A program made the translations under genes and the position numbers. The notes beneath the pieces are model-generated. The model saw nothing but the letters and a program-made list of their open reading frames with translations, did no database searches and was not told the DNA's origin. Positions 1,845-2,207 of a DNA stretch of 4,042 nucleotides are shown piece after piece. Numbering within the stretch: the stretch's first letter is position 1; every line of letters begins with the position of its first letter. Source of the stretch: a virus (lineage: Duplodnaviria; Heunggongvirae; Uroviricota; Caudoviricetes); IMG/VR virus record IMGVR_UViG_2541047498_000022, positions 1-4,042 of that record; one strand, given 5' to 3'.

Positions 1845-2207
1845 ATGCTGAAACAGCAGGATATGACAGAAACCGCCAGAGTTGTGTTTGATGAATTAAG
1901 CGTCACCGAACCGGCGACGGTCGGGGAGATTGCGCAGAATACGTACCTTTCACGCGAGCGCTGCCAGTTAATACTGACCCAGCTGGTTATGCGGGTCTGG
2001 CAGACTATCAGTTCGGTTGTTACAGACGCCTTCAGTCCTGAAGGCTTTTTTATTTGTGGTAAATGGGCGGCTGGTGGGTGTAAGGGGCACCCACCAGCCA
2101 TCTGCTCATGCGTTGGGTTCACAAGCAAACCTCAGGCCCACTGCTTTGCGCAAAAGCAGAATGAGCCTATCAGAGACAGGCTTAATGATCCATGCTTAAT
2201 ACTGTAA
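1845..2207 (+). CDS. Hypothetical small protein, possible N-terminal helix-turn-helix; 3' extent doubtful
   Basis: ATG at 1845 with an AAGGG Shine-Dalgarno-like motif 9 nt upstream. The N-terminal ~60 aa (…TVGEIAQNTYLSRERCQLILTQLVMR…) look like a helix-turn-helix fold. The same frame reads through a canonical intrinsic terminator (2028-2055) and a 12-bp perfect inverted repeat (2069-2099) before stopping at 2205-2207, 16 nt inside the methyltransferase ORF. The Cys-rich C-terminal half may be non-coding read-through. Confidence 0.35.
   Translation: MLKQQDMTETARVVFDELSVTEPATVGEIAQNTYLSRERCQLILTQLVMRVWQTISSVVTDAFSPEGFFICGKWAAGGCKGHPPAICSCVGFTSKPQAHCFAQKQNEPIRDRLNDPCLIL
2028..2055 (+). terminator. 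Canonical rho-independent terminator (GCCTTCA-GTCC-TGAAGGC + TTTTTTATTT)
   Basis: 7-bp perfect stem at 2028-2034 / 2039-2045 with a 4-nt loop, immediately followed by a T6 run (2046-2051) and ATTT. It lies inside the annotated small ORF. Confidence 0.55.
2069..2099. repeat. 12-bp perfect inverted repeat (GGCTGGTGGGTG / CACCCACCAGCC, 7-nt spacer) with a Chi octamer in each arm
   Basis: Read directly: the left arm 2069-2080 is the exact reverse complement of the right arm 2088-2099. GCTGGTGG (Chi) is at 2070-2077 on + and its complement CCACCAGC at 2091-2098. There is no T-run after it, so it is not a terminator. Confidence 0.9.
2141..2159. promoter_or_regulatory. Near-perfect palindrome CTGCTTTGCGCAAAAGCAG about 35 bp upstream of the methyltransferase start; candidate operator
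   Basis: CTGCTTT (2141-2147) and AAAGCAG (2153-2159) are reverse complements around a GCGCA centre; the core TTTGCGCAAA is itself palindromic, with one extra A. Position and symmetry suggest a dimeric DNA-binding site. Confidence 0.35.

Follow-up and report, generated by a model that had tools for sequence, protein, structure and literature searches.

Conserved multi-helix element upstream of a prophage DNA methyltransferase gene as the probable source of an opposed pair of Chi octamers

The recombination octamer Chi (5'-GCTGGTGG-3') occurs in Escherichia coli K-12 at a density of 1008 per 4.6 Mb, and lambdoid phages without a Rec module carry abundant top-strand copies near the right end, in what is called the active orientation (Zheng et al., PMC12315714). 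Among DNA methyltransferases (MTases), M.EcoGII harms the cell when expressed constitutively and is silent in its lysogen (PMC5778455), a silence for which the literature infers a transcriptional cause; the MTase of phage 1720a-02 has been named as very similar to this sequence-independent adenine methylase (PMC5778455). The stretch analysed here (positions 1 to 4,042 of the IMG/VR record IMGVR_UViG_2541047498_000022, taken as a whole and hereafter called the window) comes from a lambdoid prophage of the Shiga toxin (Stx) type, of which it forms the 'moron' region in the late operon. Upstream of its MTase gene, the window contains a 12-bp inverted repeat with one Chi octamer in each arm, in opposed orientations.

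This inverted repeat is probably stem P2 of a conserved multi-helix element of ~135 nt (2056-2191), located 5' of the MTase ATG, in which selection keeps the pairing and not the Chi sequence. The covariance model R1 matched the window at 2054-2194 (126.7 bits, E = 3e-30), and the element comprised the following parts:

2056 to 2191, listed on the MTase (+) strand: structured element, covariance model R1, directly upstream of the MTase start codon
2064 to 2068, + strand: 5' strand of P1 (UGGGC), pairing with 2136-2140
2069 to 2080, + strand: 5' arm of P2 (GGCTGGTGGGTG), holding the + strand Chi at 2070-2077
2088 to 2099, + strand: 3' arm of P2 (CACCCACCAGCC), holding the - strand Chi at 2091-2098
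2103 to 2110, + strand: 5' strand of P3 (TGCTCATG), pairing with 2120-2127
2120 to 2127, + strand: 3' strand of P3 (CACAAGCA), pairing with 2103-2110
2136 to 2140, + strand: 3' strand of P1 (GCCCA), pairing with 2064-2068
2141 to 2159, + strand: P4 hairpin (CTGCTTT-GCGCA-AAAGCAG), 2141-2147 pairing with 2153-2159
2162 to 2184, + strand: P5 hairpin (TGAGCCT...AGGCTTA) with a conserved CAGAG loop, 2162-2168 pairing with 2178-2184, stopping 8 nt before the ATG
2187 to 2190 (-5 to -2 from the MTase ATG): invariant GATC (alignments A2 and A4)

The distribution of the element was established with the MTase protein as an anchor in a collection holding one genome per species. The anchored prophages came from many genera of the Enterobacterales: Escherichia, Kosakonia, Trabulsiella, Mixta, Enterobacter, Klebsiella, Citrobacter, Buttiauxella, Rosenbergiella, Providencia, Proteus, Morganella, Photorhabdus and Xenorhabdus. 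Across the Enterobacteriaceae, Erwiniaceae and Morganellaceae loci, the leader of ~135 nt before the ATG showed a mean column identity of 80%, with MTases sharing only 57-80% amino-acid identity with that of the window. The R1 model gave one match per locus, each ending at the MTase ATG, in all 41 genome-locus hits above E = 1e-20, and also matched phages LLS (160 bits) and 1720a-02, where it likewise abutted the MTase start. Neither the alignments nor Pfam (no match) indicated a conserved reading frame across the element among these relatives.

Paired positions covaried across these loci. In the MAFFT alignment, 87.4% of cells were paired, compared to 30-42% when the partners were slid by 1-3 columns, and compensatory changes were found in 13 pairs (2-5 in the slid controls). 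The model-fitted alignment A4, comprising 44 sequences, gave 89.2% of cells paired (29.5-42.1% slid), 14 compensatory pairs (2-5 slid) and a covariation score of 0.145, compared to at most 0.087 in the slid controls. The observed score was reached by none of 500 shuffles; the slid controls are the stronger comparison, as kinship alone can exceed shuffles without any structure. Among the 44 sequences, P1 was paired in 100% of cells, with a single compensatory change (AUGAGC/GGCUCA, in locus L214), and P2 in 97%, where both sides had changed in 7 of the 12 pairs. In P3, which has two central mismatches (C.A/A.C) on the + strand, 5 of the 8 pairs were changed on both sides, the closing pair being seen as C-G, U-A, A-U and U-G. 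The mostly invariant P4 was paired in 89.8% of cells and P5 in 84.8%, the latter with 2 pairs changed on both sides and many G.U pairs that exist in the + strand reading only.

The Xenorhabdus and Photorhabdus loci (L241-L279) possessed a shorter form of the leader ~90 nt before the MTase ATG, with a variable hairpin in the position of P2, set inside an outer helix (GGUGAA/UUCACC), and then a second hairpin with a P5-type CAGAG loop. This short form suggests a minimal core of the element; a + strand Chi was present in 5 of 20 cases and a - strand Chi in none. A search of Rfam 15 (4227 families, including the S-adenosylmethionine (SAM) and S-adenosylhomocysteine (SAH) classes; E<=1) returned no match to the element at gathering threshold, the sole overlap being P26 (RF00630) on the - strand, whose 24.3 bits (E = 0.059) fell short of the gathering score of 36. 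Further pairings were also considered. By inspection, a pseudoknot between the P3 loop (GGUCA/GAUCA) and the UGAUC before the ATG was rejected, as it overlaps P3 and a T-to-G change in its last pair is uncompensated in 5 sequences, and so was an outer CAC/GUG extension of P4, broken by one-sided changes in several rows. An alternative helix GCUCAU/GUGAGC was paired in 88.6% of cells with zero covariation. Possible alternative pairings (UGGGC with GCUCA or GCCCA; GCUCAU with the 5' strand of P5) give a hint of a switch, with no covariation.

The fate of the Chi octamers was followed among homologues of the hairpin. In a first alignment, the 5' arm and the bases upstream of it were invariant and the 3' arm differed. 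Among 127 viral-contig copies picked by their 5' arm, the commonest 3' arms were CACCTGCCAGCC, CACTCACCAGCC, the perfect CACCCACCAGCC and bulged forms such as CACCCGACCAGCC, while unrelated sequence lay 3' of the 5' arm in 10 copies. The CACCTGCCAGCC arm forms two G.U pairs as RNA and two mismatches as DNA. Most relatives had CACCTGCCAGCC, CACTCACCAGCC or the bulged CACCCGRCCAGCC, none of which is a - strand Chi, this octamer arising only with a perfectly complementary 3' arm. A second sample of 116 copies (54 unique variants) was anchored on helix P4, and hence blind to the hairpin. It contained the + strand Chi in 103 copies (41 unique variants) and the - strand Chi in 6 (6 unique variants), and the 44 diverse copies gave 33 with the + strand Chi, in the 5' arm, and 4 with the - strand Chi. 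With the - strand Chi in 4/44 and 6/116 copies, the opposed pair therefore characterises a minority lineage, and it was common only in the nearest relatives of the window. The 5' arms without Chi were mostly altered at the T within the octamer, the most variable base of the arm (e.g. GGCTGGCGGGTG and GGCTGGAGGGTG), and the Proteus and Providencia arms (GACTGTAAAGGTG/CACCCTTACAGTC, with one copy GACAGTGAGGATG/CATCCCCGCTGTC) kept the stem and lost Chi.

Accordingly, the octamer was not conserved or enriched beyond the surrounding constraint, the - strand Chi being rare and non-Chi stems being kept. The two opposed Chi sites are an incidental by-product of pairing in a stem that has GCTGGTGG in its G-rich arm: once the 3' arm had become a perfect complement in this E. 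coli lineage, a second Chi was automatically present on the other strand. The perfect arms of this lineage may have come from template-switch correction of a quasipalindrome, a route to perfect palindromes that is documented in E. coli (PMC7202029).

Within the window itself, the arms (2069-2080 and 2088-2099) were 100% complementary over 12 bp around a 7-nt loop. None of 300 dinucleotide-preserving shuffles of the window contained a perfect 12-bp arm at a loop of 3-10 nt, the longest arm being 11 bp (3 shuffles), so the perfect inverted repeat reported in an initial annotation of this DNA was borne out. The same annotation had counted four Chi octamers in about 4 kb, including a second inverted pair at 2884-2897, and the exact-octamer count agreed (2070 +, 2091 -, 2884 - and 2890 +). 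Shuffled windows held a mean of 0.17 Chi and a maximum of 2, and 0 of 200 held four. At the K-12 density, 0.88 Chi would be expected in the window (P(>=4) = 0.012). Because the four sites form two palindromes, they amount to only two independent events; counted in this way, the probability of at least two is 0.22 at the same density.

The view that the hairpin (2069-2099) is not a terminator also held, no T-tract being present 3' of the stem and no flag being raised by the terminator scan; an intrinsic (Rho-independent) terminator was rejected on the missing U-tract after the G+C-rich hairpin. The sequences 3' of the stem are ATCTGCTC on the + strand and GCCCATTTAC on the - strand, and the scan flagged neither. 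A repetitive extragenic palindromic (REP) or bacterial interspersed mosaic element (BIME) repeat was rejected as well: a 91-nt query matched a median of 1 place per genome (maximum 8), in prophages only, at genes annotated as hypothetical protein, TrmB-family regulator or DUF3927 (prophage). The hairpin did not behave as a common repetitive palindromic unit, which the initial annotation had named as a finding that would speak against its proposal, every full copy examined abutting an MTase gene. A full-text literature search with the arm sequences returned unrelated papers only.

The second Chi pair is a coding palindrome:

2884 to 2897: 14-bp palindrome CCACCAGCTGGTGG, inside the MTase open reading frame (ORF), encoding H-H-Q-L-V

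Its codons (CAC CAC CAG CTG GTG) lie within the conserved PHHQLV motif, and as CAC/GTG and CAG/CTG are reverse complements, His-Gln-Leu-Val in common codons makes a palindrome. Synonymous variants in relatives delete one or the other Chi of this pair; among 80 close relatives, the - strand Chi was present in 75 and the + strand Chi in 41.

The density and orientation of Chi were further examined in related prophages and phages. The homologous prophage region of O157 strain 86-24 contained 8 Chi in 50 kb, divided equally between the strands, and the O157:H7 ompW prophage, with an identical palindrome, contained 9 in 35 kb (1 per 3.9 kb; strands 6:3), 5 of them within this 1.2-kb module. Both O157:H7 prophages examined were thus at about the Chi density of the host; both also carried an early-region gene annotated 'exonuclease'. 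The + strand is the late-transcription (top) strand, and the gene order of relatives is Q-MTase-lysis-terminase. Under the rule of PMC12315714, the + copies of the window (2070, 2890) would be in the active orientation and the - copies in the inactive one. Phage LLS, with the same leader and MTase and both + strand Chi, had 9 + vs 1 - Chi in its right-most 7 kb, and the MTase-anchored loci of the genome collection had 215 + vs 54 - in 455 kb. One further site lies upstream of the element:

1754 to 1761, + strand: decayed Chi GCTGGTAG, an exact + strand Chi at this place in at least 48 close relatives

In at least 48 relatives (L127-L206), this upstream octamer, 439 nt before the ATG, was exact within at least 3 differing flank contexts, and 62 + strand Chi were counted at -437 to -440 from the ATG. 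An exact Chi amid differing flanks suggests that the octamer itself is under selection, in the orientation described as active for lambdoid phages. Top-strand Chi may therefore be favoured in parts of this phage population, with the 5' arm of P2 contributing, given the 9:1 ratio in LLS, the 215 vs 54 sites and the preserved upstream octamer. This preference concerns + copies only, and leaves the palindrome unexplained.

To map the ends of homology, 200 related viral loci were compared with the window by local BLAST. Most ends fell at ~1640-1740, 3190-3214 and 3505-3581, which means that the small gene is usually carried in a single block with the leader and the MTase. Minor clusters were found at the 5' edge of the element (2055-2061, 6 loci) and at 2081 (8 loci), a single junction type that cuts the element after the 5' arm and continues into a DUF3927 mini-ORF and iraM; further breaks lay at 2095 (1 locus) and 2115 (4 loci, of the O157 truncated-MTase type). 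In E. coli AR_0006 and ATCC 25922 (L003/L004, 1501-1600), position 2081 was followed by GGTGG-rich sequence, DUF3927 or a 15-aa mini-ORF, and iraM. The location of the 2081 junction in repeated GGTGG motifs suggests a microhomology-mediated rearrangement. Chi stimulates exchange over kilobases to one side, and junctions at the octamer itself are therefore not predicted. The initial annotation had proposed, as a check, to see whether breakpoints cluster at 2069-2099; only a minority of junctions fell at 2055-2115, and these are more readily explained as rearrangements inside a conserved island or at its border.

The homology of the O157 86-24 type stops at ~2115, just past the hairpin, and the toxic MTase is hence inactivated in that prophage lineage. 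Many O157:H7 genomes had the MTase replaced by a 714-bp 'helix-turn-helix domain' remnant (L001, 5179-5892, in O157 86-24). The left part of the window was 99.6% identical to an O157:H7 prophage with a truncated MTase, and the 91 bases around the hairpin were 100% identical to the O157:H7 ompW prophage, where an intact 352-aa MTase lies directly downstream. The window is thus a mosaic, nearly identical to one O157 prophage in its Q/CPBP part and matching the ompW prophage in the 91 hairpin bases; the ompW prophage itself has a different (DUF1133) gene in the Q region.

Whether the + or the - strand folds was weighed from pair types and folding energies. On the + strand, P2 had 28 G.U vs 8 A.C cells and the extended P5 had 49 G.U cells, both favouring this strand. 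A sense function is also indicated by the element ending at a fixed distance from the ATG without a Shine-Dalgarno sequence (none was found before the MTase ATG in the leader alignments), by the invariant GATC and by the conserved start of the ORF, an A/T-rich stretch of 27 nt in which the nucleotide sequence is preserved despite variation in the residues it encodes (K/N/I, I/L). The element most likely controls expression of the MTase. It is plausible, if somewhat short of probable, that the element acts as RNA in the MTase leader, setting translation or stability; its most likely target would be translation initiation or mRNA stability of the MTase. The product may methylate adenines indiscriminately, which would be harmful in a lysogen and would call for expression only late in lytic growth. 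Among the three uses that the initial annotation had offered for the hairpin, the stable RNA hairpin in the MTase leader is thus the best supported, with the amendment that the hairpin is only one stem of a larger fold.

Several observations weigh against the interpretation of a paired element folding on the + strand. The alignment A4 was fitted to the model structure, which biases its pairing counts upward, P1 and P4 are uninformative because they are nearly invariant, and covariation in the inverted repeat, taken alone, could also reflect a palindromic operator for a protein. A second constraint on the 5' arm is possible, because it varies less than the 3' arm and about three quarters of the variants retain the + strand Chi. 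In P3, 90 A.C vs 4 G.U cells were counted on the + strand, and the helix is continuous over 9-10 bp on the - strand in both Enterobacteriaceae and Morganellaceae. Finally, the RNAalifold consensus energy was -17.4 kcal/mol for the + strand vs -30.5 kcal/mol for the - strand.

The last two points lead to the main alternative, a - strand cis-antisense RNA of ~140 nt, a three-way junction (P1, P3, P2) followed by UUUU, which would have the hairpin as one of its stems, pair with the MTase leader and start codon and silence the toxic MTase in lysogens, in the manner of type I toxin-antitoxin systems or of antisense control in phages. We consider this rather unlikely. The - strand consensus fold (-30.5 kcal/mol) has 9 compensatory pairs, six of six substitutions between two clades keep the - strand pairing of P3 (our own reading of A4), GCCCAUUUUCAC lies 3' of P1 on this strand, one weak - strand promoter-like site ending at the ATG was present in Proteus, and the MTase of this type is silent in lysogens (PMC5778455). 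However, scans of the window, L210 and LLS were empty and no conserved - strand promoter was found, the critical A of a -10-like hexamer being lost in about 1/4 of the sequences through a synonymous Asn codon change; the G.U cells of P2 and P5 become A.C mismatches, and the U-run follows a branched structure instead of a simple terminator hairpin and was not flagged by the scan. Single-sequence minimum free energy (MFE) was lower for the - strand in 30 of the 44 sequences, with a mean difference of merely 1.4 kcal/mol. A folded sense leader and a cis-antisense RNA could also operate together. Selection on the Chi octamers themselves, as a recombination hotspot or as protection from RecBCD in both directions, appears improbable. 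Exact Chi sites on both strands above the shuffle expectation, the orientation of the + copies, called active in PMC12315714, with their excess in LLS and the anchored loci, the upstream octamer kept in differing flanks, and the concentration of ompW Chi in the module all speak for it. They are set against the rarity of the - strand Chi, which leaves the opposed pair unconserved, the retention of the hairpin with non-Chi arms through compensatory change, the variability of the octamer's T, the host-like density and early 'exonuclease' of the O157 prophages, and the position of the main homology breaks elsewhere. The bidirectional hotspot or RecBCD shield at a module boundary put forward in the initial annotation is accordingly not upheld, the - strand Chi being lineage-specific, the stem outliving Chi and the block usually moving whole; a contribution of the + strand copies alone is possible.

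A DNA operator for a dimeric regulator, especially the protein encoded by the upstream winged-helix-turn-helix (wHTH) gene acting like a controller (C) protein of restriction-modification systems, is very improbable. Of 61 loci with the element or its short form, 46 had an intact wHTH homologue upstream, Xenorhabdus and Photorhabdus included, a symmetric change of half-sites would mimic covariation, and by inspection the conserved TGTGAAAAT immediately 5' of the repeat looks like an extended -10, in which case the repeat would lie just past a start site. The idea is weakened by the 15 loci without the wHTH gene, phage LLS included, in which the full element is intact and highly conserved. Moreover, the gene is frameshifted in the window and O157, 1-nt bulges and one-arm asymmetry of the G.U type are tolerated, and the repeat is nested in covarying P1 and P3, which an operator does not explain. 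A short coded peptide (MGGWWV from the ATG at 2063, or a 47-codon frame from the GTG at 2056 that overlaps the MTase start) is barely credible: the ATG at 2063 is invariant, the 47-codon ORF reaches the MTase start in the window and a DUF3927 mini-ORF is annotated in the truncated variant, but 1-nt indels shift the frame, ORFs from the same ATG range from 6 to ~47 codons by hand translation, Pfam gave no match and neither start is preceded by a Shine-Dalgarno sequence.

The element is embedded in the following genes and features of the window:

window start: end of rusA
208 to 588: antiterminator Q
734 to 1558: CPBP/Rce1-like protease
1845 to 2040, + strand: small winged-helix (TrmB-like) ORF, frameshifted
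2028 to 2045: terminator-like hairpin followed by T6, flagged by the scan, just upstream of the element
2192 to 3250, + strand: PF01555 beta-class DNA methyltransferase, putatively of the M.EcoGII family (Pfam N6_N4_Mtase, E = 2.4e-43)
after the MTase: three tRNAs
3617 to 3807, + strand: small RNA (sRNA) STnc100 (RF02076, 138 bits)

The MTase of the window was 94% identical to that of phage 1720a-02, and this enzyme, together with the Pfam match, would place it in the M.EcoGII family; by sequence similarity it is predicted to methylate adenines independently of sequence context. A PDB sequence search with the MTase returned generic beta-class MTases only and no M.EcoGII structure. The small wHTH ORF lacks one G near 1991 compared to intact 65-aa relatives, and RefSeq annotates the O157 copy as a frameshifted pseudogene. 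The first tRNA (3291-3366) was called Met (CAT) by ARAGORN, and the same gene is tRNA-Ile in the O157 RefSeq annotation, which would fit a tRNA of the ileX type, where modification of the CAT anticodon leads to its being read as Ile. A terminator-like hairpin on the - strand (3836-3815) is convergent with the STnc100 match on the + strand (3617-3807). This arrangement fits the 'convergent sRNA pair in the moron site' described in prophages of enterohaemorrhagic E. coli (EHEC) (PMC4104026), and the match itself fits the PasD/STnc100 family (10.64898/2026.05.13.724894). The papers on EHEC prophage sRNAs do not mention a methyltransferase.

A bidirectional Chi signal would have been new, and the evidence removes a tempting wrong annotation from Stx-type prophages. 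In its place stands a well-supported candidate structured element, outside Rfam, before an MTase family that serves as a chromatin-footprinting tool, and it offers a concrete handle on how MTase silence in lysogens is achieved. A conserved G-rich RNA stem can also yield Chi as a by-product, which matters when Chi counts are used to infer the recombination strategy of a phage. It is doubtful, though conceivable, that 2056-2191 represents an undescribed class of regulatory RNA for M.EcoGII-type MTases, with the 5' arm doubling as a right-end Chi in the active orientation. If so, the element, either a leader that responds to a ligand or protein or a pair of sense and antisense RNAs, would keep the MTase silent in lysogens and release it late in lytic growth, and a single sequence would function at two levels, as RNA structure and as a DNA signal for lambdoid phages without Rec functions.

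Compared to known systems, the element resembles structured cis-regulatory leaders (riboswitch-like 5' untranslated regions and translational operators) in its fixed place upstream of one gene family, its several covarying helices and conserved joining nucleotides, and a downstream gene without a Shine-Dalgarno sequence; it differs in lying outside Rfam 15 and in the ambiguity of the folded strand. With type I toxin-antitoxin systems of the hok/sok type and phage antisense RNAs it shares a toxic product that is silent in lysogens and a complementary strand that folds at least as well, whereas no conserved antisense promoter or canonical terminator was found here in the scans, and the 'toxin' is a 352-aa enzyme instead of a small membrane peptide. 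The order of a small HTH gene, an inverted repeat and then a methyltransferase recalls the C protein and C-box of restriction-modification systems. Unlike these, the element occurs without the regulator gene in 15 of 61 loci, has no restriction gene nearby, and has its repeat nested in a larger fold.

The Chi sites are like those of lambdoid phages (PMC12315714) in that the octamer is exact and the + copies lie on the top strand of the late region, LLS itself carrying the leader and MTase. They differ in the host-like density of the O157 prophages (strands 4:4 and 6:3) and their early 'exonuclease' gene, in the inactive orientation and lack of conservation of the opposed - copies, and in a stem that outlives Chi. 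As in quasipalindrome template switching, the arms of relatives are imperfect (CACCTGCCAGCC, CACTCACCAGCC) and that of the window's lineage is perfected, although here the direction and mechanism are inferred and stepwise transitions are equally possible.

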